Virus record (IMG/VR): IMGVR_UViG_2654587674_000003
Length of the DNA stretch: 64,000 nucleotides
Reading direction: 5' to 3' (one strand)
From: a virus
Taxonomy: Duplodnaviria; Heunggongvirae; Uroviricota; Caudoviricetes
Shown: in pieces, positions 4,169-62,867 of the stretch
Layout of the letters: the number at the start of each line of letters is the position of its first letter
Numbering within the stretch: position 1 is the first letter of the stretch
Notes under the pieces: model-generated
What the model saw: the letters and a program-made list of their open reading frames with translations, nothing else
Told to the model about the DNA's origin: nothing
Databases searched by the model: none
Translations under genes and position numbers: made by a program

Positions 4169-7100
4169 TTAATCCTCAAGCAGAGCATCCAGCGACTGGT
4201 CATTAATAGTTGTGCTCGCACGTGGTCGCGGCTGCGGCTGCGATGTTTTGACAACATTATCCGGATCGCCTTTTGTATTGTTCTTGTTCACATTCAGCAG
4301 ATCGTTCAGGATAGAGCAGATGTTATCCAGCGCCTTCAACATAGCAGGATCGTTATTTATAGTGTCAGTAGTTAATGGTTGTCTTATTCCGCTTCGTGCG
4401 AGATCGGTTACAGTAGGGAGTTGTGGCGGCATAGCAAGAAAAGGTTCTTGCACAGCTGAAGCAGAGCCAAATATGGCGTTATTGGCACCAGTTGCTATTC
4501 CCCTAATGCTATTAGCGGTTTGTTGAATCCCCCCATTCAGCCAGTCTCCAACATTTCTTGTTAATGGGCTAATAGCTCGCGCAATCGCACTATTCTGCCC
4601 AGTAGACTGCATTACAAGATCGTTCAATATCCCTGTACTATCAATCCCCCCAACAAGTCGTGAAAGGTTATCGCCAACGGCAGGAATTACTGCGGTTCCT
4701 GCCTGTTTAAGCCCTGACACCGTGGAATCAAATAGCGAACCAAAGAAGCTCTTATCCTCACCTGTAACCACCTTGTAGCCGTTGTCATAAATCTGCACAT
4801 CACTTGGTGCCGTGATAGTTCGTTTTCCAGAGGTAACTACTGGCGCAGCTCCCGACATAGCCTGGTTGATTGCTAGAGCCTGCTCCTGCTGTGGGGGTTT
4901 CGGTGCTGGCGCTGCAGACGAAAAGCCCGCCATAGCCTGGTTGATTGCTAGAGCCTGCTCCTGCTGTGGGGTTTTCGGTGCTGGCGCTGCAGATGAAAAG
5001 CCCGCCATAGCCTGACTGATTGCTAGAGCCTGCTCCTGCTGTGGGGATTTCGGTGCTGGCGCTGCAGACGAAAAGCCCGCCATAGCCTGGTTGATTGCTA
5101 GAGCCTGCTCCTGCTGTGGGGTTTTCGGTGCTGGCGCTGCAGACGAAAAGCCCGCCATAGCCTGACTGATTGCTAGAGCCTGCTCCTGCTGTGGGGTTTT
5201 CGGTGCTGGCGCTGCAGACGAAAAGCCCGCCATAGCCTGGCTGATTGCTAGAGCCTGCTCCTGCTGTGGAGTTTTCGGAGTAGAAGGGGATACTTGATCT
5301 CCCGGAAGTAGATCAATGATTTCTGTATCGTGATTAACAGTGCGTTTTTGTTGTATGGCTGTTGCGATATCAGCCACTTGAGAAGCTTTTTTAAATCCAA
5401 AAGATTTACCGGTTAAGCCGGATATCTTTTCAGTAAGAGCCTGATCCATTCCTTTCGCTTTTTCGGAAAGCGAAGATATAGAACCAAACGAAGTAGCCGA
5501 CGCAAAATCCTTTACCAGGTCCAGACTTGTTCCAGCAAGGCTGGTAGCCGCGCCGCCAAATAAATTACTTGCACCACTGATTCCGCTTTCATTTATTGCG
5601 ATTAACCGCTCAAGCAAACTCGATGGAGAGCCGGTATTAACATCAGCGTTCTCTGGATTAATCGGTTGTGGTTGGTTACCTTTTTTTTGTGGCTTTTTGG
5701 CGGCCTGGGCATGTTGTGCAACTTCAATTGGCTTAGGTGTTGCTGTTGGAACTGCATTCAATACAGGTTGTGCTGGAGATGTACCATCAGCATATTTCAC
5801 CTTGCGACCAACGCTATATTGCGAATCACGAGCAATTAGTTGACCGCCATTCTCTTGCTGAATTTTATTAAGCCGCGCCAATGTTTCATCGGAGAACCGC
5901 CCTTCCCAACGACCAGTATTTGCGTTGAATGCCCCAAGAGCATTCTTTATGAACTCATTGTTAACCGCCGGGTTTCCACCTTCTTTCGTCGCTATTGCAC
6001 GAACTAATTGCGTCATAACCTCTGGGTTGCTGACGTCTATTTTTTCATTAGGCGAGACGCCAAGATATTTACTGACGTTATCAATATATTGATTGGTATT
6101 GTTCTCATTTGGCGGCGCCCATTTGGAAATGATGCTTGATACCGTCTGTAACTTCTGATGTCCTGCTGCGGCACTGGTGCCGTTGTAATAGCTTGACACT
6201 TGGTTTGCCAACGCCCTGATCCCTTCTTCAGGCGTGTTGAATCGAGCAAAACGCTGTTCACCTTTTGCATTCGGTGCTTCCAGCGTCGCCCCTTCCTGAT
6301 TGGCGAAAACAAGGTTCCCGAGATTATTATTCCGATAATTGCGGTTTTTAGCGTTGCTGCCACCAATATTCAGATCCGCAGCAATGGTGTTACTGGTAGG
6401 CGCATTAAATTCAGCCGGGGAAGTATACCCGTGCTCACCAACACCATCTTCACCATCACGCCCGCCTTGTAGCTGTCGGCCCAGGTTATTAATTGCGGTT
6501 ACCGTTTGCTTGGTGCCATCTTCAACGGCTTTCTTAACCTGCGCAGTGCCTTCGCTGCTTGATGAGAACGATTCTTTTAGGCTGCTGAATACGGTTTTTG
6601 TCGTGTCTATAGAACTATTTATGTCACGAGCAATATCTCCAGTGTCAAAATTCTGAAGTTTTTCACCTGCCCCTTCAAAGCCTAACGCAGAAATCCCTTT
6701 GCCTATTAGGTTGGTTGCACCCGACACTAAGCCGCCCATATCAAGCACATTAGCTGCTGCATAAGCGGTTTTTTGCTGTGTGGATACAGCATTATCATCA
6801 CTTAAGCCAAAGGCTGCCTTTTGTGCCTCTGTATCAGTGTAACCGTCTATAGCATCGTATCCTGCCATAGCGATATTGCCGATAATTGGGATTCCTCTGA
6901 CGCCAGCCCTTACGGCTGCACCACCGGCAGCTTTTAATGCGATTTTTCCAGCCTCTTTCTTTGCGAGATTCTCCCCTGTTGCGATAGCTACTTTCTCGGT
7001 AGTTGCTTCAGTTGCAGCTTTGGCTATACCGGTACTAGCCGTTTTTCTGGCCCCTTTATCTGCAACTTTCTCCGTCGTTTTTGAAGCATCACCAATAGCC

Positions 7101-8455
7101 TCTTTTCCGGCGTTGCGGGGTTGGTGATTTTCATTTTTAACGGAATTATTTTTGCTATTTTGTTGTTTTTTCTCAACTTTATCTTTGGGGGTTGATGTTT
7201 CGCCTTTTTCCGTTGTAGTTGTTTTAATTTTGTCCTTTTTGGCTTCAGGTCTTTTATCAGCTCTTCTATCCTTTTTAGACTTGTTTTTGTTTCGATTTGT
7301 TTTATTGCGATTTGAGGTAATGCGATCTCGGTTTCGACTAAAAAGATCACTTAACTTAATTCCATTACCTTTTGTTTTCATAGATTTACGGAGTTTTACT
7401 ATTTCATCTGAAACATTCTCCAACTCATCTATGATTCGAGCGTCATTGGATTGAAGAACTTTGGTTTGTTCTTCAACTACTCGTACTGACTTTGCTTCAA
7501 TCGCGTTGTTAAATGCTGCTGAGGAAGCCGAATTTTTTTCATTTCTAGGCGCAGGATAAGTGATTGCTGCTGGTTTCGATTCAGATGTCGATAAATTGCT
7601 GTCCCCTTTATCACTCCACTCTTTAAGCGATTCTGCTTTCCCGGTGATCTCTTTTGTAATGTCATAAATGCCGCGAGCCGCCATCCATAACGGGCCGCCA
7701 GCGCCAACACCGGCAGCATTTGTTATGGCATCTTCACCTGCAGACTGGTGATTATCCATTCCCATAATTGAGCCAAGCTTTCTGAGAAAGCCGGCTTGTA
7801 ATTTTGCGTCGGCTTTACGTGCGTTCTGCAATTCTTTTTTTCTGGCTACATCCTCATTGCTTTTTTGGGATACAAAACGTCCATTACTATCCCGCAGCGG
7901 GCCTTTTAGACTTTGGGGGGATTGTGGTTCAAGAGGGGCTGAATTAGCAGCTACCGGTATAAAACCGTCCGATTTTCGGATGGTCTGACGTGATTGCACG
8001 GAGCGAACACTTTCTGGTGTGTTCGTTGCAACGATAGAGCGGTCCACGGTTTGGTTTAACGGTGTCCTTTCCTTTTTAGCAGGGAGACGTTTTTTATATG
8101 GGTTAGTTTGGACATCTCTAACGCTATCAGATGTACTTTGCTCGTACTCTTTACGCCTGCGTGATAGTCTGTTGCTAACTCTGCCTTGCCTTTCGGCCTG
8201 TTGAGTTATGGTGCTTGCCCCAGAAAGAATGGCATCTTTGATCTCAGCAAGAGCCTTAAGTTCGTTTGTGCTCGCCCCCTGAATAGCGTCAATTATTGCG
8301 ATACGGTCTTTATTCTCTTTCAAAATAACCTCTCTTTTACCAGCGGCGACAACGTTTCCCGGCTTGAGCTTTGTATTTTTCTTCCAGGGCTTTTGACATA
8401 TGGAGTGCTCGCCATTGTGGCAATTGTTCAACGTCACTAACGGGCTGATATCCAT
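4169..8455 (-). CDS. Tail tape-measure-like / injection protein (1428 aa)
   Basis: Very large ORF upstream of baseplate genes; Ala/Gly-rich helical segments, K/R/N-rich low-complexity tract, tandem 25-aa repeats. Confidence 0.6.
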   Translation of the reverse strand: MDISPLVTLNNCHNGEHSICQKPWKKNTKLKPGNVVAAGKREVILKENKDRIAIIDAIQGASTNELKALAEIKDAILSGASTITQQAERQGRVSNRLSRRRKEYEQSTSDSVRDVQTNPYKKRLPAKKERTPLNQTVDRSIVATNTPESVRSVQSRQTIRKSDGFIPVAANSAPLEPQSPQSLKGPLRDSNGRFVSQKSNEDVARKKELQNARKADAKLQAGFLRKLGSIMGMDNHQSAGEDAITNAAGVGAGGPLWMAARGIYDITKEITGKAESLKEWSDKGDSNLSTSESKPAAITYPAPRNEKNSASSAAFNNAIEAKSVRVVEEQTKVLQSNDARIIDELENVSDEIVKLRKSMKTKGNGIKLSDLFSRNRDRITSNRNKTNRNKNKSKKDRRADKRPEAKKDKIKTTTTEKGETSTPKDKVEKKQQNSKNNSVKNENHQPRNAGKEAIGDASKTTEKVADKGARKTASTGIAKAATEATTEKVAIATGENLAKKEAGKIALKAAGGAAVRAGVRGIPIIGNIAMAGYDAIDGYTDTEAQKAAFGLSDDNAVSTQQKTAYAAANVLDMGGLVSGATNLIGKGISALGFEGAGEKLQNFDTGDIARDINSSIDTTKTVFSSLKESFSSSSEGTAQVKKAVEDGTKQTVTAINNLGRQLQGGRDGEDGVGEHGYTSPAEFNAPTSNTIAADLNIGGSNAKNRNYRNNNLGNLVFANQEGATLEAPNAKGEQRFARFNTPEEGIRALANQVSSYYNGTSAAAGHQKLQTVSSIISKWAPPNENNTNQYIDNVSKYLGVSPNEKIDVSNPEVMTQLVRAIATKEGGNPAVNNEFIKNALGAFNANTGRWEGRFSDETLARLNKIQQENGGQLIARDSQYSVGRKVKYADGTSPAQPVLNAVPTATPKPIEVAQHAQAAKKPQKKGNQPQPINPENADVNTGSPSSLLERLIAINESGISGASNLFGGAATSLAGTSLDLVKDFASATSFGSISSLSEKAKGMDQALTEKISGLTGKSFGFKKASQVADIATAIQQKRTVNHDTEIIDLLPGDQVSPSTPKTPQQEQALAISQAMAGFSSAAPAPKTPQQEQALAISQAMAGFSSAAPAPKTPQQEQALAINQAMAGFSSAAPAPKSPQQEQALAISQAMAGFSSAAPAPKTPQQEQALAINQAMAGFSSAAPAPKPPQQEQALAINQAMSGAAPVVTSGKRTITAPSDVQIYDNGYKVVTGEDKSFFGSLFDSTVSGLKQAGTAVIPAVGDNLSRLVGGIDSTGILNDLVMQSTGQNSAIARAISPLTRNVGDWLNGGIQQTANSIRGIATGANNAIFGSASAVQEPFLAMPPQLPTVTDLARSGIRQPLTTDTINNDPAMLKALDNICSILNDLLNVNKNNTKGDPDNVVKTSQPQPRPRASTTINDQSLDALLED
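4856..5290. repeat. Tandem repeat, about 6 x 75 bp, inside the tape-measure gene
   Basis: Unit CATAGCCTGGTTGATTGCTAGAGCCTGCTCCTGCTGTGGGGTTTTCGGTGCTGGCGCTGCAGACGAAAAGCCCGC restarts at 4856, 4931, 5006, 5081, 5156, 5231 with 1-3 substitutions; encodes PAPKTPQQEQALAISQAMAGFSSAA. Confidence 0.9.
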
Positions 8456-23766: not shown

Positions 23767-25428
23767 ATGAGTGAGGCAGAAGCCCGCCCGACTAACTTTA
23801 TTCGTCAGATCATCGATGAAGATCTGGCCAGTGGTAAGCACACCACAGTACATACCCGTTTCCCGCCGGAACCGAATGGCTATCTGCATATTGGTCATGC
23901 GAAATCTATCTGCCTGAACTTCGGGATCGCCCAGGACTATAAAGGCCAGTGCAACCTGCGTTTCGACGACACTAACCCGGTAAAAGAAGATATCGAGTAC
24001 GTCGAGTCGATTAAAAACGACGTTGAATGGTTAGGTTTTCACTGGTCTGGCGACATCCGTTACTCCTCCGATTATTTTGACAAACTCCATGCCTATGCTG
24101 TTGAACTGATCAACAAAGGCCTGGCGTATGTTGACGAACTGACGCCAGAACAGATCCGCGAATACCGCGGCACCCTGACGCAGCCGGGTAAAAACAGCCC
24201 GTACCGCGACCGCAGCGTTGAAGAGAACCTGGCGCTGTTCGAAAAAATGCGTGCCGGTGGTTTTGAAGAAGGTAAAGCCTGCCTGCGTGCGAAAATCGAC
24301 ATGGCTTCGCCGTTTATCGTGATGCGCGACCCGGTGCTGTACCGTATTAAGTTTGCTGAACACCACCAGACTGGCAACAAGTGGTGCATCTACCCGATGT
24401 ACGACTTCACCCACTGCATCAGCGATGCGCTGGAAGGTATTACGCACTCTCTGTGTACGCTTGAGTTCCAGGACAACCGTCGTCTGTATGACTGGGTACT
24501 GGACAACATCACCATTCCTGTTCACCCGCGCCAGTACGAATTCTCGCGCCTGAATCTGGAATACACCGTGATGTCCAAGCGTAAGCTGAACCTGCTGGTG
24601 ACCGACAAGCACGTTGAAGGCTGGGATGACCCGCGTATGCCGACCATTTCCGGTCTGCGTCGTCGTGGTTACACTGCGGCTTCTATTCGTGAGTTCTGCA
24701 AACGCATCGGCGTGACCAAGCAGGACAACACCATTGAGATGGCGTCGCTGGAATCCTGCATTCGTGAAGATCTCAACGAAAACGCCCCGCGCGCAATGGC
24801 GGTTATCGATCCGGTGAAACTGGTCATCGAAAACTATCAGGGCGAAGGCGAAATGGTCACCATGCCGAACCATCCAAACAAACCGGAAATGGGTAGCCGT
24901 CAGGTGCCGTTTAGCGGTGAGATTTGGATCGACCGCGCCGATTTCCGAGAAGAAGCTAACAAGCAGTACAAACGTCTGGTGCTGGGTAAAGAAGTGCGTC
25001 TGCGTAATGCTTACGTCATTAAGGCTGAACGCGTGGAGAAAGATGCCGAAGGTAATATCACCACCATCTTCTGTACTTATGACGCCGACACCTTAAGCAA
25101 AGATCCGGCAGATGGTCGTAAAGTGAAAGGCGTTATTCACTGGGTGAGCGCGGCACATGCGCTGCCGGTTGAAATCCGCCTGTACGATCGTCTGTTCAAC
25201 GTGCCGAACCCAGGTGCTGCGGATGATTTCCTGTCGGTGATTAACCCGGAATCGCTGGTGATCAAACAAGGCTTTGCTGAACCGTCGCTGAAAGAAGCGG
25301 TAGCGGGTAAAGCATTCCAGTTTGAGCGTGAAGGTTATTTCTGCCTCGACAGCCGCCATTCTACGGCGGAAAAACCGGTATTTAACCGCACCGTTGGACT
25401 GCGTGATACCTGGGCGAAGTTAGGTTAA
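23767..25428 (+). CDS. glnS: Glutaminyl-tRNA synthetase
   Basis: 553 aa; HIGH motif ([12 protein letters not shown]), VMSKR; near-identical to enterobacterial GlnRS as I recall it; own promoter region and terminator. Confidence 0.95.
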
Positions 25429-25452: not shown

Positions 25453-25479
25453 TAAACGCCGCTACTGCGGCGTTTTTTA
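25453..25479. terminator. Bidirectional terminator between convergent glnS and dmt
   Basis: AACGCCGC-TACT-GCGGCGTT plus TTTTTT; T-rich on the opposite strand as well. Confidence 0.75.
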
Positions 25480-28095
25480 CTTCATTATTGCAATTATATC
25501 GTTAGCAACTACACGTGTTGACGCCTTGCAGGAAACCGACCGTCTGGCTGCCATATGATGTACTTTAAACCCGTTTCCTTCATATAGTTCACGGATGTTT
25601 GGTGCACCACTATTTGTAATCACTACCTTAGCGCCGCGCTGGTGGGCTTCCACCAATAGAGATACCAGCCGTTTCTGTTCGTCGAAACGGAAGCTATTTC
25701 CTGAATAACTGGTAAACCCTTCTGTATCCGGCAGCGGTTCATACGGCGGATCGCAAAAAATCACATCGCCTTCACCAGCCGCCTCGATGACGCCAGCAAA
25801 GTCACCTGATACAAAGGACGTGTTTTTGAGTACGTCATCAGCCAAAAATGCCTCCATCTCTGCATGTGGGAAGTAGGGCGCTTTGTATTTGCCATACCCC
25901 ACGTTGAACTCGCCATTTTGGTTGTACCGCGTTACGCCATTAAAACAGTGCCGATTAAGGTACAAAAAGGCGGCAGCATGATGTAGCTGGTCATACTTTC
26001 CTCTGTTAAATGCCTCACGCACTTCGAGGTAAGCGTCAGCGTTGTTGTAATTTTGGAAAAAACTATATGACAGCGTGACGAGCGAATGTCCTTCTCGCTG
26101 CAATGTCTGATAGAAGTTAATCAGGTCACCGTTAATATCATTAAGCAGGTTGTGGCGAAATCCTGCATTCGTAAATACAGAACCGCCACCAACGAACGGT
26201 TCTATTAACCGCTTGCCGTGTGGTAGATGCTCAAGCACTGTAGGCAACTCTGAGAATTTACCGCCTACCCATTTGAAGATCGGACGCTCATATTCATCCG
26301 GAGTCCGGAGTTTTCTTGTGTAGGTAATGGTATTTATTGTTTTTGGCTGTTTAGCTTCCACAGTCGCAAGAATGCGACACCCAATCCATTGCATAACAGG
26401 AACTGCCATGCTGTTGCCAATCGCTTTGTAACGCGGCCCGTCAGCAGCGAGCATCGCGGCCTCTTCTTCGCTTAAATCTGGATAGTGATTGCGAAGGTAT
26501 GCCAGTTCATCTGAGGAAATTGTTTTACGCTTTTCCGTCGGGATCAACGTATGCCCATCAGGAAAACCTTGCAGCCTTTCACATTCGATAGGGGTAAGAC
26601 GGCGAACACTCATCATATGAGGTAAGTAACCATTATCACCTAATTCGCCTTTTTCAATACTTTTCTGCCCCCCAAAAGATAACGCAACGGCGTCAGCTGT
26701 AGCGCGGGAATCAAGAGTGAAACTTATCTCTTTTTGCCACCCTTTACCCTGCGGTCCAGCATCATCTTTTCGCCCAATTTGTGCATGTTGTAGCGAATAC
26801 GCAACAGCTGGTGGGCATCCTGCATTTGGATTGCTATTAACAGTATTACCAGATCGTAAAGTCGGAGAACATTCAATAGAAACATCTTGTCCATAATCTT
26901 TGCAGGAAAAAGCTACGACTGCATTTTCTTGACCATGGTTACGACCAATAGTATGTGCCAATTCACAATTAACATCAGGATCTTGTGTTCCATGAATAGC
27001 CATCACTGCCAGATGTTCGTGACTTTCTTGTGCTCTGGCACGAAGAGTGCCTGCACCTTCACGCCAAATACCAGCACCAGTACTACTGAAAACTGCTAAA
27101 TCGGTTGCATCTTTAAAATCTCTGGCCTTGACAGTAGAAGCAGTCTCATCATCAGCATATTCGCCAAATGCAACCATTCGATAAGCACCAACAAGCCCAC
27201 TTCCGCGCTGCGCAAAAATCTCCTGGTTACTTGCGCCGATCCCGCCAGTATTGTGTGACTGGTTAAGTGTCGGGTGCGGATTTACAGGGTTATCCCAATG
27301 GCTCCCGCTTTTAATGCCATTTCCAACATTTCCGGCAACTTCCTTCCCCTCGCCTCTGCTCGGCGCAATATTCCGGCGCACGCCTTCGAACTCAAAAAGT
27401 ACCGTTGCGGGATCGAGGTCTGTTCGAGCACTTGCGACAACAAACACGCGTCGGCGTCGTTGTGCCACTCCGAAGTATTGGGCATCAAGGATTCTCCAGG
27501 CCACCTTTCGCTGCGGTCCATAAATACAACCACACTGCGGCCACTTTGGAGCATGGCAACCGGTTTTGCCATCCCACCGCCAGAACGCGTTACTTTTTCC
27601 TGATTCAGGTCGATCACCTGGTTCAAATGGCGCATCTTCTCCAGCCAATCCGGCAAGGAAACATCCGAAGGCGTTATCTGCCGATGACAGGACTCCTGGG
27701 ACATTTTCCCAGACGATAACTGTCGGTTTGAGGAAGGACTCAGACCGTTTGTCGTCAATTGCATTTGCAAGCTCCACATACTTCAAAGTTAGCGCGCCGC
27801 GTTCATCATCAAGCCCACCACGTAAGCCCGCGATACTGAATGCCTGACAAGGCGTACCCCCGACGAGCACATCAGGGGATTCGATTTCCCCAGCCAGGAC
27901 TTTTTTGGCAAGTTTTGTCATGTCGCCAAGGTTGGCGACATGGGGCCAGCGGTGCGCAAGAACGGCAGATGGAAAAGGCTCGATTTCAGCAAACCACGCC
28001 GGACGCATACCCAACGGTTCCCAGGCAATGCTCGCTGCTTCAATTCCACTGCAAACTGAACCATATCTAAGGTTAACGTTCTGCTTCACCACCAA
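25477..28095 (-). CDS. dmt: Bifunctional DNA methyltransferase: N-terminal C5-cytosine MTase domain + C-terminal Dam-like N6-adenine MTase domain
   Basis: 872 aa; [12 protein letters not shown] and ENV motifs N-terminal; FVGGGS and DPPY motifs C-terminal; TTG/GTG start with GGAGG. Confidence 0.8.
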
Positions 28096-57117: not shown

Positions 57118-58146
57118 TTACGAATCCATCAGGCGGCTATTAGCCCCCACAGACACGCCGCCACGGCGAAGATACCGCATAAGTGTTTCCGGTTTCTTCC
57201 AGGTTCCTTCCTGCATGATCTCCACCATAGACACCTGCTTTTCAGCCATATCAATAGCGGCCCCGACGCGTGCACTATGCCCAGTCCACGTCCGGTATCT
57301 TCCTTTGTTTGGCGTAGCATCTCTTTTATTCAGCAACACCCAGGCGTCGCTGAATATTTTCTCCATTGCAGGTGCAGTAAGGGGCGTTGTCGTAATCCTG
57401 GCCTTATTGCTACGGTGTATCGGCGGGAACAGCACCGCGTCAGGATGTTCACGAAGCCCGGAAACATCCAGCCAGTCATTCAGCACAGCAGTAGTGCGAC
57501 GGGAAAGCACCTTATCAAGCCCGGCGGCGGTCGTTATTGTCTTCGTGTGTGAAATATGTAGCGTGACAGTGTCACCTGTTTGGTCCAGATCTCCTACACG
57601 AATACGCGAGATTTCCGACATACGCATCAGCGTATTGTATGCAACAAAGAGAAAAGCCCGGTTGCGCTGGTCCACCAGCCGTTCTGACCTGGACAGCAGG
57701 ACGTCGAGCAGTTTCAGGTCGTCCCACCGCAACGGTATAGCCTGGCCTGTTCGCTCGCCTTTTTCCGTTGCCGCTTCACGCCGGATGCGCCGCATGGCCA
57801 GAGACACACTTTTATCGTCCGACAGCGGCGGGAGGCCACATTGCGAAAGCAGCATGTTAAGCATGGCATAGTGCTTATCAATGGTGGTCGAAGCCAGATC
57901 AGCATCATGCAGCTGAAGAAAATACTCGCGGGCCATCTCTGGTGAGATCGGGAACCAGGCGAGCTGGCGAGCGTGACACCATCTCGCCCAGGAGTGAAAC
58001 ACTAACCGGAGATCGCGCAAAGTATTCGGCGCGTAAGCCCCCTGGTCATTCATGAACCGCATAAAGTTTTCTGCGGCCTCCTGGTACTCTTTGCCAATGT
58101 TGCGCAGAAAACCACCGGAGCTGCCAGAGATAATTAATTTACTCAT
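57118..58146 (-). CDS. dre: Cre-like tyrosine site-specific recombinase (Dre-type)
   Basis: 342 aa colinear with P1 Cre as recalled (WFP...NMLLSQCGLPPLSDDKSVSLAMRRIR, C-terminal WTGHSARVGAAIDMA); adjacent rox-like site. Confidence 0.9.
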   Translation of the reverse strand: MSKLIISGSSGGFLRNIGKEYQEAAENFMRFMNDQGAYAPNTLRDLRLVFHSWARWCHARQLAWFPISPEMAREYFLQLHDADLASTTIDKHYAMLNMLLSQCGLPPLSDDKSVSLAMRRIRREAATEKGERTGQAIPLRWDDLKLLDVLLSRSERLVDQRNRAFLFVAYNTLMRMSEISRIRVGDLDQTGDTVTLHISHTKTITTAAGLDKVLSRRTTAVLNDWLDVSGLREHPDAVLFPPIHRSNKARITTTPLTAPAMEKIFSDAWVLLNKRDATPNKGRYRTWTGHSARVGAAIDMAEKQVSMVEIMQEGTWKKPETLMRYLRRGGVSVGANSRLMDS

Positions 58147-58298: not shown

Positions 58299-58330
58299 TA
58301 ACTTTAAATAATGCCAATTATTTAAAGTTA
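58299..58330. other. rox-like recombination target site (14-bp inverted arms, 4-bp spacer)
   Basis: TAACTTTAAATAAT-GCCA-ATTATTTAAAGTTA, 150 bp upstream of the recombinase gene; matches my recollection of rox. Confidence 0.8.
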
Positions 58331-58540: not shown

Positions 58541-59578
58541 ATGAGTAAGAAGTCGATCGAGAAAGAGTACAAACGGTTCCTGCAAACCGCTGAACGGTGG
58601 AAAGAGCTGGTGGTCGCAAACTCTGTTTTCCATGATACCAGTTATGCTGGCGAGGAATTCCGCCATGTTGCATTAACGCATGACCAAAACATATTAGAAG
58701 AAGCTGAAAAATGTCTTGCTGAATGGAAAGCCTTCGTTGACATGTGCCGCGATGCCGACGGCAAAGCGTCGAACATTGTTGAGTCTGTATATTCTCCGAT
58801 CCCATTCATCATTGAGGACACCAATCAAAGCACGCATGTCGTTGTGCAAAGCGCTACAACAACACGTACATTTACACGTGAACAATTGCTAAAAAAATAC
58901 GACAAAATCATAAAGAAAAGCCTTAAAAATAGGGTTTTTTCTCAAATCGTAGGTGATCTTGAAGAAGAACAGCGCTTCTTTGAAGCTGAGCCTGAAGGCG
59001 AGATCTACCGGGCGCGTAAAGAGGCATATACAGATGTTGTGCTGACAACAAACATCGAAGGCAGCAATGCCCTTTCTCGCTTTAGAGTTGGCGCACATGG
59101 TGCATTGGTTTTCGCAAGACTACCGAAGACAACGATCCCCGTTGTCAATAATGTTGGTGAACGCCGGAGCATTACAATTTATTCTGGCGTCGAATCGGTA
59201 CCTTGCAGCCTTCTCGGCGATTTTAACTTATATCGTGTTCGTGACCTGGAAAAACACCAGCCAAGCTATGTTGCGAAGTCGTACATCTTAAGGAACATCG
59301 ATATTCGCAATGAAAGCCTTAAGCAGAAATCCGCTAAGATGCTGGAGGATGCCGATCCGGCTATTCGCCATATCATTGAGCGTAAGATACGTACATCACG
59401 TGAAGCAATGGCAAGGCTGGATAAAATGGATCTGGAATTGTTAGACGTAATGATGGCCTCTGGAGACGACCTGACCGGCATTAAACTGAATGAAGCTCGT
59501 AAAAAATACGGCAAAGCAATCGAAGAACGTTACGGATACACATTCCCCCAAACGCAGTACGCCGCGAAGCTCTGGTAA
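58541..59578 (+). CDS. Hypothetical protein (345 aa); candidate immunity repressor by position and operator context
   Basis: Divergent from the recombinase, convergent with pacB, preceded by two operator-like sites; no sequence-level support for repressor identity. Confidence 0.55.
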   Translation: MSKKSIEKEYKRFLQTAERWKELVVANSVFHDTSYAGEEFRHVALTHDQNILEEAEKCLAEWKAFVDMCRDADGKASNIVESVYSPIPFIIEDTNQSTHVVVQSATTTRTFTREQLLKKYDKIIKKSLKNRVFSQIVGDLEEEQRFFEAEPEGEIYRARKEAYTDVVLTTNIEGSNALSRFRVGAHGALVFARLPKTTIPVVNNVGERRSITIYSGVESVPCSLLGDFNLYRVRDLEKHQPSYVAKSYILRNIDIRNESLKQKSAKMLEDADPAIRHIIERKIRTSREAMARLDKMDLELLDVMMASGDDLTGIKLNEARKKYGKAIEERYGYTFPQTQYAAKLW

Positions 59579-59605: not shown

Positions 59606-61114
59606 TTATATATCCAGATCCGGCATTTCGATATCCGCCAGAACCTGATCTCGGAAAGTTGCCATTTCGGCACCAATATCTTCATTAGCAGGCACATAGT
59701 CCACCAGCATAGTGAAGCAGTAGGTATCCCATCGGTCAGGCGATTTGATGTTTAGCTTTTGCCGCATGTGCTCTTTGCGCATCATCGCCATTTTCCCTTC
59801 TTCATTCAGTAAAAAGGGGATTTTTGACGCTTGCTCTGCCGTTTTAGGGTCACTGTCTATCCGCATACGCCCTGACTTTATGGCATCACGCGCCATAATG
59901 TTTGCGTAGGCACGCTGATTAACAAATCGCTCCCTGTCTTTGTTCGCAAACATGGGTTTTCCCCACCGAATACGTACCGGGTTCGCACCACGACGCACCA
60001 ACTGCGCACACGTATCAGAACCAAAACCATCAGCATCAACCGCGATTGTTATATTCGGGTATTTTTCCGGCGTACATTCGTTATATATGAAGTCAGCAAA
60101 GGCCAATGGGTCCATAGTGCCAGGCATCTCCATTACCTTAAAGTTAACAACGCGCCGCTTATCCCTGTGACCTGATACCTTGCAGATGTTGAGGACCGAC
60201 TTATCTCGCCCATTACCAACGTCAGCCGTTGCCACCCATCCCCAGTTTTTCTCCAACAACACCTTGCGGCGAGCAGAGCGATCGCATTCATCACGACCAA
60301 GCAAATAGCCGTTAATTTCTCGTGGGAACTGACCAAGCACCTTGACCATGTACTCAATAGAATCGCGCCCACCATATTCCAGAAGCTTCTCCTTGATGAA
60401 TTGTGGTGTGACGAACGGTGATTCTTCCGAGTTAAGAACAATTGCTGTCCAGATCCCTTTCGGGTTGTCTGGGGTTTTTGCTCGAGAATGGTGCGAATCG
60501 TAGAAATAACCACTTGGCCTTGTTGGCTGGGATAGCATCAACATCCGGTTATCTTCTTCAGTAAGAGCACCGGTCATTACGCCGATCGCCTTATCAGATA
60601 TACCAGATGCTTCATCCAGAATTAGAAGCAAATGTGCCGCGTGTTCCCCCGCCAGCGCTTCTTCGTTGCCGAGTCGATAACCTTTGCAGAGAACTTCCCA
60701 AATCCCCTTACGGGAGCGCTCATAAAACATGGTGTCAGAGAGGACAAAATAGGTCTGCAACCACCCATGACGCTTAACTGCATTCGCCCAATACTGTTTA
60801 ACGTATTTGAATACGCCTGTTTTTACCTGGCCTATCTTGTTAGCAACAATGATGACACGGGCATCGGGGAACAGGATCATAAAAATCAACAGCAACATCG
60901 CGGTAAGGGACGACTTCCCCGTTCCGTGTCCGGACGTGACGGTCGTCCTACTCCCCGTTTCCTGCACTGACTGAATGATCTGCTGCTGCTGGTGGGAGGG
61001 GAACATCCCAAAAATATCGACTACAGCCTGGGTAAAGTTGTAGCGGTATTTGATTACCATATCGCGCCAGCGTGGATCGCTGGTGACGCATTTAATCTTG
61101 CGCCCGCCAGCCAT
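59606..61114 (-). CDS. pacB: Terminase large subunit PacB-like
   Basis: 502 aa; Walker A TSGHGTGKSS, Walker B LLLILDEASG; coupled to pacA. Confidence 0.8.
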   Translation of the reverse strand: MAGGRKIKCVTSDPRWRDMVIKYRYNFTQAVVDIFGMFPSHQQQQIIQSVQETGSRTTVTSGHGTGKSSLTAMLLLIFMILFPDARVIIVANKIGQVKTGVFKYVKQYWANAVKRHGWLQTYFVLSDTMFYERSRKGIWEVLCKGYRLGNEEALAGEHAAHLLLILDEASGISDKAIGVMTGALTEEDNRMLMLSQPTRPSGYFYDSHHSRAKTPDNPKGIWTAIVLNSEESPFVTPQFIKEKLLEYGGRDSIEYMVKVLGQFPREINGYLLGRDECDRSARRKVLLEKNWGWVATADVGNGRDKSVLNICKVSGHRDKRRVVNFKVMEMPGTMDPLAFADFIYNECTPEKYPNITIAVDADGFGSDTCAQLVRRGANPVRIRWGKPMFANKDRERFVNQRAYANIMARDAIKSGRMRIDSDPKTAEQASKIPFLLNEEGKMAMMRKEHMRQKLNIKSPDRWDTYCFTMLVDYVPANEDIGAEMATFRDQVLADIEMPDLDI

Positions 61115-62478
61115 TAATCATCCTCCGGCGGTTCTATCGCGATATCATCATCTCCGGCGTCATACCCTGCATCAGATGCATCATAATCACCGTAAATTTC
61201 AGCCGTTGCCGAAGGGTCAATATCCAGCTCTTCGTCGTTGGCCTCGAATTCTCCAGCTTTACGCTCGCCATTGCGGTCGTAATCTCCGCACCCCAATTCT
61301 TCAACAATGGTTGCCACATCCGCCCGGCGCTCTGCCAGCCATTGCGGATGGTTAGCCTGAAGCGTTGCAAACTCCCTTGCCTCTTTGTCCAGCTGTTCAT
61401 CATCAACATCATTGACGTCAGAAACAGGTGGTTCGAGAAGAGTGATAGCTTTCGCCGCGCGCGCCGCGAGGATAGCCGGGACGCTGACACCCTGGCGCTC
61501 GATGTATTCAGCAACACCGATATCATCCAGTTCCTCGCGCTCACGCATACGTATAGCGGCGGCGATAACTCTGGCTGCGCGTGCGTCAGCGCCAATGCGA
61601 TATTCAATCTCTTTGCCACGCTGTTCGGCCTGTAGGCGTGCTAATTCGAGTTTTTCTCTGGCCTCAGCCTCTTTGAATGCTTGCTGGCGAGCGCTCTGAC
61701 GAAGCTTTTCATCCCCCTGTCGCAGCTTTTGTTCGGACTGATATATAGCTGCCAACCTACTGATAAAATCATTCATGTAGTAGGCCGCGTCACTGATTAG
61801 ACCGAGAAGGCGCTGCCCAGGGTGCATTCCTTCTGGCTCTTTATCGCCCAAGGCGTCTATTTCCGCCTGTAGACGTTCGGCCTCCTGATCAACAATGCTT
61901 TGATACTGAAGTGCGCGCTCTTGCGCCATTTGAATTGCTAACCGCAGGTGTTCTTCTGCGCCGTTCTTCATCATATCGCGAGCCACATTCGTAGTTGGCA
62001 ATGTGGCACGCTGCACAGCACCGTCAGGGATCATTGCAGAAGATCCCTCAATTTTTGGGGCGTTTTTATCTTCTTCGGGGATCATTTTCGCCATTTTTTC
62101 GCGCAATGATCTCCTGACAGATTCTTTTATCTCATTGTTATTATTTGAATTATTTTCATGATCCGAAGTTTTCTTTCTCGGCATACTTCGGAAAGAACCT
62201 GCGCCCTGCGAATTGTCAATTTCTGTAAATTTTGTTTTTTCTGCACCCTCTTCCAGCTTTTTTGTTGCTCTTCCCGCCCGTTTTTTTTCAGGTGATTTGG
62301 TGCTTTTTTTTGTTGTCTTTACCTGCGACCGCACCTCATTTTTTTTCATATTGAGATGCTTTCTGGCTGTATTGAAGCTAAGGCCATGCTCCTCACAGTA
62401 TTCCTTTACAGTGATCCCTTTTTCTTCACGCAACGCTATAAAGCGGGCGCGGTGCTCCTCCCAATTAACCAGACTCAT
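61114..62478 (-). CDS. pacA: Terminase small / pac-recognition subunit PacA-like
   Basis: N-terminal HTH (ITVKEYCEEHGLSFNTARKHL), coiled-coil middle, acidic C-terminus. Confidence 0.7.
   Translation of the reverse strand: MSLVNWEEHRARFIALREEKGITVKEYCEEHGLSFNTARKHLNMKKNEVRSQVKTTKKSTKSPEKKRAGRATKKLEEGAEKTKFTEIDNSQGAGSFRSMPRKKTSDHENNSNNNNEIKESVRRSLREKMAKMIPEEDKNAPKIEGSSAMIPDGAVQRATLPTTNVARDMMKNGAEEHLRLAIQMAQERALQYQSIVDQEAERLQAEIDALGDKEPEGMHPGQRLLGLISDAAYYMNDFISRLAAIYQSEQKLRQGDEKLRQSARQQAFKEAEAREKLELARLQAEQRGKEIEYRIGADARAARVIAAAIRMREREELDDIGVAEYIERQGVSVPAILAARAAKAITLLEPPVSDVNDVDDEQLDKEAREFATLQANHPQWLAERRADVATIVEELGCGDYDRNGERKAGEFEANDEELDIDPSATAEIYGDYDASDAGYDAGDDDIAIEPPEDD
61887..62163. other. 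GATC-rich segment inside pacA; candidate pac cleavage site
   Basis: Six GATC in about 277 bp (61887, 62029, 62042, 62080, 62108, 62160), five of them in 135 bp. Confidence 0.35.
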
Positions 62479-62867
62479 AAAGCAACACCACGCTTTTTAA
62501 CGGCGGCATTCCACAGCTTATTCGCCATGTCCACCAGCTCTCGTTGCTCTTTTCGCGCCTGTTCGACTGATTTCCTGCTACAGTTTTTAACCAGTAAACT
62601 GCCATATTCAGGGGTTCGCCCACGCACCTTGAACTGATATCCGTTCAGGCCATGCAACCAGTATTTTCGTGGGTAAACACGATCATCAAGCTCACAGATT
62701 GCCCTGCTTGAACGAACAAAATGACGAATGATGTTAGTTACACTTACTCGTGAAACATGGAGATGAGGGTATTTTTCTTTGGCGAGAGTGGTAATTTCAG
62801 TGACTGTCAGATAGCAGTCAGCCCTGATCATGATATCCGCAATTTCTGCGCTGCTGATTTGTTCCAT
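62475..62867 (-). CDS. Small protein upstream of pacA; possible late-promoter-activator-like
   Basis: ATGA overlap with pacA; assignment by position only. Confidence 0.4.
   Translation of the reverse strand: MEQISSAEIADIMIRADCYLTVTEITTLAKEKYPHLHVSRVSVTNIIRHFVRSSRAICELDDRVYPRKYWLHGLNGYQFKVRGRTPEYGSLLVKNCSRKSVEQARKEQRELVDMANKLWNAAVKKRGVAL

Follow-up and report, generated by a model that had tools for sequence, protein, structure and literature searches.

A conserved array of five GATC elements within pacA as the probable pac site of a D6-like phage-plasmid

Where does a D6-like phage-plasmid begin to package its DNA, and is that step gated by adenine methylation as in phage P1? The question is raised by IMG/VR virus record IMGVR_UViG_2654587674_000003 (Duplodnaviria; Heunggongvirae; Uroviricota; Caudoviricetes), a stretch of 64,000 nucleotides (nt) that was analysed as a whole and is called the window here. 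A 454-amino-acid (aa) open reading frame (ORF) on its minus strand (61114-62478) is 99% identical at the DNA level to pacA of Escherichia phage D6, and by its sequence the window element is a D6-like, P1-related phage-plasmid. Within this pacA lies a cluster of GATC motifs, the Dam methylation target, and five of them remain unchanged among relatives while the surrounding sequence diverges, which makes the locus very probably a DNA-packaging start site. We put at about 0.6 the probability that the array at 62029-62163 is a PacA recognition array of the P1 type, probably a methylation-gated pac site, in a compact variant layout.

The first-pass annotation of the locus had pointed to six GATC in about 277 bp, five of them within 135 bp, inside the PacA coding region. 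Both counts hold: the motifs start at 61887, 62029, 62042, 62080, 62108 and 62160, all within the ORF at 61114-62478, giving six per 277 bp (61887-62163) and five per 135 bp (62029-62163). Whatever counting interval is tried, this cluster is the densest of the whole window. On the plus strand the hexamers read GGATCA (62029), AGATCC (62042), GGATCA (62080), TGATCT (62108) and TGATCC (62160), and TGATCA occurs solely at 61887. The annotation was also right that one site alone is TGATCA and that the consensus differs from that of P1, the D6-clade element consensus being the asymmetric TGATCC (AATGATCCC), with none of the five conserved elements reading TGATCA or TGATCG. The elements are as follows (window position = 62479 - pacA nt).

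62029-62163, no strand assigned: conserved array of five GATC elements, candidate pac recognition region; pacA nt 316-450 of 1365, codons 106-150.
62159-62164, plus strand: element 1, TGATCC, pacA nt 316; encodes Asp-His on the gene strand, with the clade-invariant core CGGATCA (gene strand).
62107-62112, plus strand: element 2, TGATCT here and AATGATCCC in divergent lineages, pacA nt 368; Arg changes to Gly with GATC kept.
62079-62084, minus strand: element 3, TGATCC, pacA nt 396; the 10-mer AAATGATCCC is invariant and the Ile codon is ATC.
62041-62046, plus strand: element 4, AGATCC, pacA nt 434; GATC alone is invariant, and Gly changes to Arg with GATC kept.
62028-62033, minus strand: element 5, TGATCC, pacA nt 447; AATGATCCC is invariant.
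61887-61890, no strand assigned: sixth GATC, TGATCA, pacA nt 589; unconserved and outside the array.

The TGATCC-like sequence thus lies on the plus strand at 62160, 62108 and 62042 and on the minus strand at 62080 and 62029, with spacings between the array sites of 52, 28, 38 and 13 bp. A repeat search returned elements 3 and 5 as a direct repeat (D1, 51-bp spacing), and two inverted repeats, I3 and I4, that pair element 2 with elements 5 and 3. Measured from window position 62095.5, the GATC motifs are centred at +66, +14, -14, -52 and -65 bp, and from these distances the sites at 62160, 62108, 62080 and 62029 form two nested inverted pairs. These four elements are nearly symmetrical about ~62095, a reading of the coordinates alone to which no significance figure is attached. 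An 8-bp perfect inverted repeat (TCCGAAGT / ACTTCGGA, 15-nt loop, 62162-62192) abuts element 1; divergent lineages carry, by eye, other short GC-rich inverted repeats at the equivalent of 62162-62192.

Homologues of pacA were drawn from plasmid records, GTDB genomes and IMG/VR, yielding 84 distinct sequences, 30 of which make up the D6 clade (68-100% protein identity); two frameshift-ridden sequences (L011 and L103) were left out. The array sites at nt 316, 368, 396, 434 and 447 are kept in 30, 29, 29, 30 and 30 of the 30 D6-clade sequences, respectively. Of the 30, 22 have the sixth site (nt 589, window 61887); the divergent lineages L007-L009 carry GACC or GACA in its place. The interval 61887-62163 singled out by the first-pass annotation is therefore too wide, and the true feature is 62029-62163.

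Comparison with L007-L009 separates the motifs from their surroundings. Outside the GATC columns, nt 301-460 are 59-61% identical to these lineages, and residues 101-153 of PacA are 42% identical, whereas 20/20 GATC columns are identical. In the D6-clade alignment the islands CGGATCA, GATCATT, AAATGATCCC, GATC and AATGATCCC are invariant amid a variable background. As a control, we followed the non-array GATC of the 3.3-kb lpa-pacA-pacB region: 2/12 are kept in all three divergent lineages versus 5/5 in the array (Fisher's exact test, P ~0.003, hand calculation). Identity around the control sites is higher than at the array, yet most of these sites were lost. The strong evidence for the array is, at the level of sequence, this comparison with relatives and not the counts in the single sequence, and by it purifying selection at the DNA level is acting on five of the six GATC sites.

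Natural single-site variants occur among the D6-like contigs of IMG/VR, L045 being without the nt 368 site and L060 without the nt 396 site. Both have an otherwise near-identical pacA and differ by one T-to-C change each, which in L060 replaces Ile by Thr (ACC).

Could the protein alone produce this pattern? If the cluster were a by-product of the PacA linker sequence (Asp-His, Arg/Gly-Ser, Met-Ile), the DNA itself would have no role. The array-coding protein does contain residue pairs that favour GATC (Asp-His, Arg-Ser, Met-Ile, Gly-Ser and a second Met-Ile), the Met-Ile-Pro motif is conserved in the D6 clade, and a resampling of synonymous codons over nt 313-453 that leaves the protein unchanged raises the expectation to 2.0 GATC, ~4 times the window average. 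The probability of at least five GATC is still 0.013-0.017 under this resampling. Elements 2 and 4 change the encoded residue (Arg to Gly at nt 368, Gly to Arg at nt 434) yet keep GATC, in a stretch where the protein is just 42% identical. At the array sites of the 30 sequences, the codons ATT and ATA for Ile and GAC for Asp are almost never used, the sole exception being L060, where the change is non-synonymous; wherever Ile is retained at nt 396 and 447 its codon is ATC, although ATT is equally common in the genes of the element. The loss of most control GATC from better-conserved coding DNA points in the same direction. A pure coding by-product is largely excluded, and we regard it as a highly improbable account of the cluster.

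Within the single sequence the statistics are mixed. The window holds 225 GATC in total against 240 +/- 16 expected. When the 64-kb window was shuffled 1000 times with dinucleotides preserved, 17% of the shuffles reached five GATC per 135 bp somewhere (P = 0.17), a frequency of equally dense clusters that would suit a by-product, and 42% reached six per 277 bp. As a window-wide discovery the cluster is unremarkable by these shuffles, and it is weakly unusual when the protein is held fixed (P = 0.013-0.017 for at least five sites). Neither the heptamer ATGATCC nor the hexamer TGATCC is enriched across the window; solely their clustering in pacA stands out.

An isolated TGATCC lies further upstream in pacA:

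62412-62417, plus strand: isolated TGATCC, pacA nt 63, in the part coding for the helix-turn-helix (HTH); kept in 30/30 D6-clade sequences.

It is also found in some Serratia and Xenorhabdus lineages at equivalent Gly-Ile-Thr/Ser codons, and could either mark a distal element of pac or reflect mere protein constraint (the Gly-Ile-Thr motif). Its conservation is uninformative because it sits in strongly constrained HTH-coding sequence.

The array is embedded in a packaging-gene neighbourhood that contains the following features.

61114-62478, minus strand: pacA, pacase A subunit, small-terminase-like (phrog_1711 terminase, E = 3e-184).
59606-61114, minus strand: pacB, pacase B subunit, large-terminase-like (phrog_2 terminase large subunit, E = 8e-40).
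62475-62867, minus strand: lpa, late-promoter activator, directly upstream of pacA as in P1 (PF25716, E = 5e-57).
58541-59578: c1-type repressor.
58299-58330, no strand assigned: rox, the Dre recombination site (exact match).
57118-58146: Dre recombinase.

The gene order lpa, pacA, pacB, c1, rox, dre is that of D6 and of P1. The N-terminus of PacA matches small terminases in PHROG and has a conserved HTH region; residues ~45-160 form a variable, low-complexity stretch. The array lies 3.8 kb from rox, which is on the pacB/c1 side, that is, in the direction of pacA transcription. With PacA as query, tblastn against phage records matched D6 alone, P1 PacA being too distant, and a search of plasmid records gave 142 that match the PacA of the window.

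Besides pacA, pacB and rox, the element carries a gene of the Dam family:

25477-28095, minus strand: two-domain DNA methyltransferase, 872 aa; a C5-cytosine methylase (PF00145) followed by a D12 N6-adenine methylase (PF02086).

That the element encodes its own Dam-like methyltransferase, as the first-pass annotation had it, is confirmed by this ORF, whose C-terminal adenine domain matches the E. coli Dam structure 2g1p (E = 5e-58) and DpnM (E = 7e-46); GATC is the methylation target of both enzymes. Phage D6 has two separate genes instead, orf63 (Dam, 301 aa) and orf64 (C5, 226 aa), and window positions 26381-28065 are 92-97% identical to dmt of the P1-like phages SJ46, RCS47 and JL22. From the fused 872-aa ORF, the split D6 genes and the identity to P1-like dmt, the methyltransferase locus looks like a D6/P1 mosaic. 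On the plus strand, at 23767-25428, is a full-length glutaminyl-tRNA synthetase (GlnRS) gene (553 aa, three Pfam GlnRS domains); phage D6 has the same gene (orf62), so its presence was already known for the D6 group.

How closely does the array resemble pac of P1? The P1 pac site, reportedly described by Sternberg and Coulby (1987, 1990) and Skorupski et al. (1994), lies in pacA. The annotated cleavage and IHF sites of P1 are at NC_005856 positions 90784-90813; in pacA numbering the IHF site covers nt 256-268 and the cut sites nt 276-285, both between the GATC groups at nt 195-229 (HEX4) and nt 325-348 (HEX3). Each hexamer of P1 pac is a Dam site; methylation controls cleavage by PacA/PacB together with IHF and HU, and synonymous disruption of the hexamers lowers packaging ~9-fold (PMC10028697). 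P1 needs Dam methylation at pac, and dmt is hence essential in Dam-negative hosts (PMC12707154). Cleavage and its dependence on methylation are demonstrated for P1 only.

The two systems share GATC hexamers in the 5' third of pacA, in the linker-coding part after the N-terminal HTH, as well as an adjacent pacB, lpa upstream, a phage-encoded Dam-family methyltransferase and a similar distance to the recombination site (pac to lox ~4.0 kb; array to rox 3.8 kb). They differ in layout: P1 has seven TGATCA/G hexamers arranged 4+3 around a ~96-bp gap that holds the IHF and cut sites, whereas the D6-like element has five TGATCC-type elements in 135 bp, in both orientations, and gaps of 52 bp at most. 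Aligned by protein, the array starts about at the three-hexamer arm of P1 (HEX3) and runs ~100 nt further downstream. The proposal that the cluster mirrors the P1 arrangement is accordingly right in part: a GATC cluster in the 5' third of pacA with DNA-level conservation is present, the 4+3 arms, the ~96-bp spacer and the ~12-bp-spaced arm are not, and no IHF consensus match was found in nt 60-540.

The array has counterparts throughout the PacA family, including the experimentally defined pac of P1. In 24 non-redundant pacA lineages (P1, D6, Enterobacter, Citrobacter, Leclercia, Pantoea, Rosenbergiella, Serratia, Xenorhabdus and Buttiauxella), GATC occurs at 15.2/kb in nt 100-520 and at 4.4/kb elsewhere in the gene, a 3.5-fold difference (binomial P = 2e-21). 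GATC hexamers concentrate in the 5' third of pacA in every lineage examined, P1 included, and plasmids of Enterobacter (L010), Pantoea, Serratia, Xenorhabdus, Citrobacter and Leclercia show the same enrichment at nt 100-520 as the D6 clade. All non-D6 lineages are two-armed, with 2-7 upstream GATC, a gap of 83-199 bp and 1-5 downstream sites; repeats such as x-Asp-His or x-Asp-Gln encode the upstream arm, whose sites are ~12 bp apart in most lineages. The flanking bases vary by lineage (TGATCA in P1, Pantoea, Serratia and Xenorhabdus; TGATCC in D6, Enterobacter L010 and Buttiauxella L022), and the GATC core is constant across clades despite these changes. The sister lineage of the D6 clade, Enterobacter p60214CZ_1 (L010), shares the TGATCC flavour and has at least 3 or 4 positionally equivalent downstream sites (Gly/Arg-Ser, both Met-Ile-Pro and probably 434/435). 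Relative to other phage-plasmids of the family, the D6 clade has lost the upstream arm and gained the nt 316 site. Literature searches found no experimental work on the GATC arrays of these other PacA-family phage-plasmids.

Conserved GATC motifs could also serve a purpose other than packaging. Clustered GATC are known targets of SeqA and Dam regulation in enterobacteria, and the array could be a Dam/SeqA-dependent regulatory element (an operator for PacA autoregulation, or a control of pacB or of an antisense transcript), with pac in the variable stretch at nt 150-315 or outside pacA. That the D6 clade is without the upstream arm that all other lineages carry, and that no IHF consensus site was found in nt 60-540 of the window pacA, would fit such a role. 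A promoter scan of both strands, on the other hand, found nothing promoter-like in or near the array, and the position of the array is continuous with that of the L010 downstream arm and close to HEX3 of P1 in the protein alignment. The same type of element is the pacase recognition site in P1 (PMC10028697). We judge a regulatory element distinctly unlikely. The stretch upstream of the array, D6-clade nt 150-300, is the least conserved of pacA (27-40% invariant columns), bar an island at nt 245-266. This island (CA(A/G)AATTTACA(G/A)AAA(T/C)TGACAA, window 62213-62235) encodes Phe-Thr-x-x-Asp, lies ~50-70 nt upstream of the array and has no match to the IHF consensus. A-tracts at nt 130-250 were considered as an intrinsic bend substituting for the lost arm and rejected on inspection, being off helical phase and in the least conserved stretch.

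A packaging site need not be a gated one. The array could be a genuine pac array in which PacA simply recognises GATC within its binding motif and methylation does not gate cleavage in the D6 clade. The conserved motif exceeds GATC (AATGATCCC), as would be expected of a protein-binding site, the layout is unlike that of P1, and enterobacterial hosts methylate GATC anyway. Against an ungated site stand the precedent of P1 (PMC10028697, PMC12707154), the Dam domain that the element itself carries, and the constancy of the GATC core across clades whose flanks have changed. An ungated array is in our estimation plausible but unlikely; that GATC stays fixed while its flanks change, and that the element encodes a Dam domain of its own, argue that methylation sensing has probably been retained.

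For a P1-type, methylation-gated array, the following course of events may be proposed; that PacA binds, where the cut falls, which way packaging runs and that methylation gates the cut are all inferred from the comparison with P1. During late lytic growth, PacA would bind the GATC-containing elements, and PacA with PacB would cut the concatemer within or beside the array. Headful packaging would then proceed from pacA through pacB and c1 to rox, the direction of P1 packaging being the basis for this direction. The first headful would in this way carry rox in its terminal redundancy, and Dre would be able to circularise the injected DNA; the 3.8 kb between array and rox, close to the 4.0 kb of P1, fits such a placement. 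As a Dam target is at the core of every element, cutting is expected to need full adenine methylation, which either host Dam or the Dam domain of the element could supply. Hemimethylated, freshly replicated copies would be protected, limiting initiation.

Several observations weigh against this assignment. Phage D6 PacA is 21% identical to that of P1, which makes the transfer of function from P1 to D6 a long step. D6-clade pacA has no paired arms around a long spacer and no ~12-bp-spaced arm. No match to the IHF consensus WATCAANNNNTTR with at most one mismatch was found in nt 60-540 of the window pacA; the same scan recovers the annotated P1 site, and since IHF sites are degenerate, the absence of a consensus match is weak evidence. 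Six other D6-clade sequences were scanned likewise, of which five gave no match and L009 gave one single-mismatch match at nt 325. Neither of the phage D6 records carries an annotated pac feature. Taken in one sequence alone, the cluster is weakly unusual and its significance is weak. Finally, L045 and L060 are each short of one site, implying either that single sites can be lost or that those copies are defective.

From the layout differences of the D6 clade, the array resembles a downstream arm that expanded and took over once the upstream arm was gone. We offer tentatively, as a possibility that we would not favour at present, that a P1-type pac was rebuilt in this clade as a compact single array of five asymmetric TGATCC elements, without an IHF site or ~12-bp arm, with the Dam gate retained and with GATC gating ancestral to the PacA family in Dam-positive Gammaproteobacteria. 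On such a rebuilt array the pacase would assemble in another geometry, perhaps without need of IHF, and would cut at or close to the symmetry centre.

The D6 array is the expected homologue of the classic P1 system, hitherto unannotated; its layout is a clear variant and not a new principle. A pac site within the gene for the recognition subunit (small terminase) is also found in gene 3 of P22 and gene 1 of SPP1, among others, with headful packaging, as is proposed for the D6-type array. We know of no pac site of the P22/SPP1 type that is built from Dam targets or gated by methylation. Full-text literature searches, which did not cover a 2004 paper by Sauer and McDermott (said to compare the pac-c1 region of phages including D6) or a 2018 paper by Gilcrease and Casjens (reportedly on the D6 genome), found no description of a D6 pac site, and an earlier mention is possible.

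D6-like phage-plasmids are common in E. coli and Salmonella and are the source of the Dre/rox recombination tool. A known D6 pac site would permit D6-based phagemids or transducing particles that are independent of P1-based ones, and would help to predict which DNA is transduced by D6-like phage-plasmids. The family also amounts to a natural experiment on the design of P1 pac, in which the GATC core is fixed and the flanks, number, spacing and orientation of the elements vary. Comparison of D6 with P1 helps to separate the needs of the methylation gate from those of pacase geometry.

Two IMG/VR contigs from one genome, L054 (2537562191_000021; nt 1-150) and L065 (_000026; last 150 nt), end in pacA at nt 320 and nt 329. 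They were considered as physical DNA ends and set aside, an assembly break or an insertion sequence (IS) target duplication being likelier. The contigs overlap by 10 nt (ATGAAAATAA) directly after element 1, which could reflect an IS target duplication, a break between co-resident variants or coincidence.

The second densest GATC group of the window (4264-4405, in a tail-protein ORF) was taken as chance, its sites having no common flanking sequence. This ORF, at 4169-8455 on the minus strand (1428 aa, tail/tape-measure-like), contains about six tandem copies of a ~25-aa repeat (PKTPQQEQALAISQAMAGFSSAAPA).

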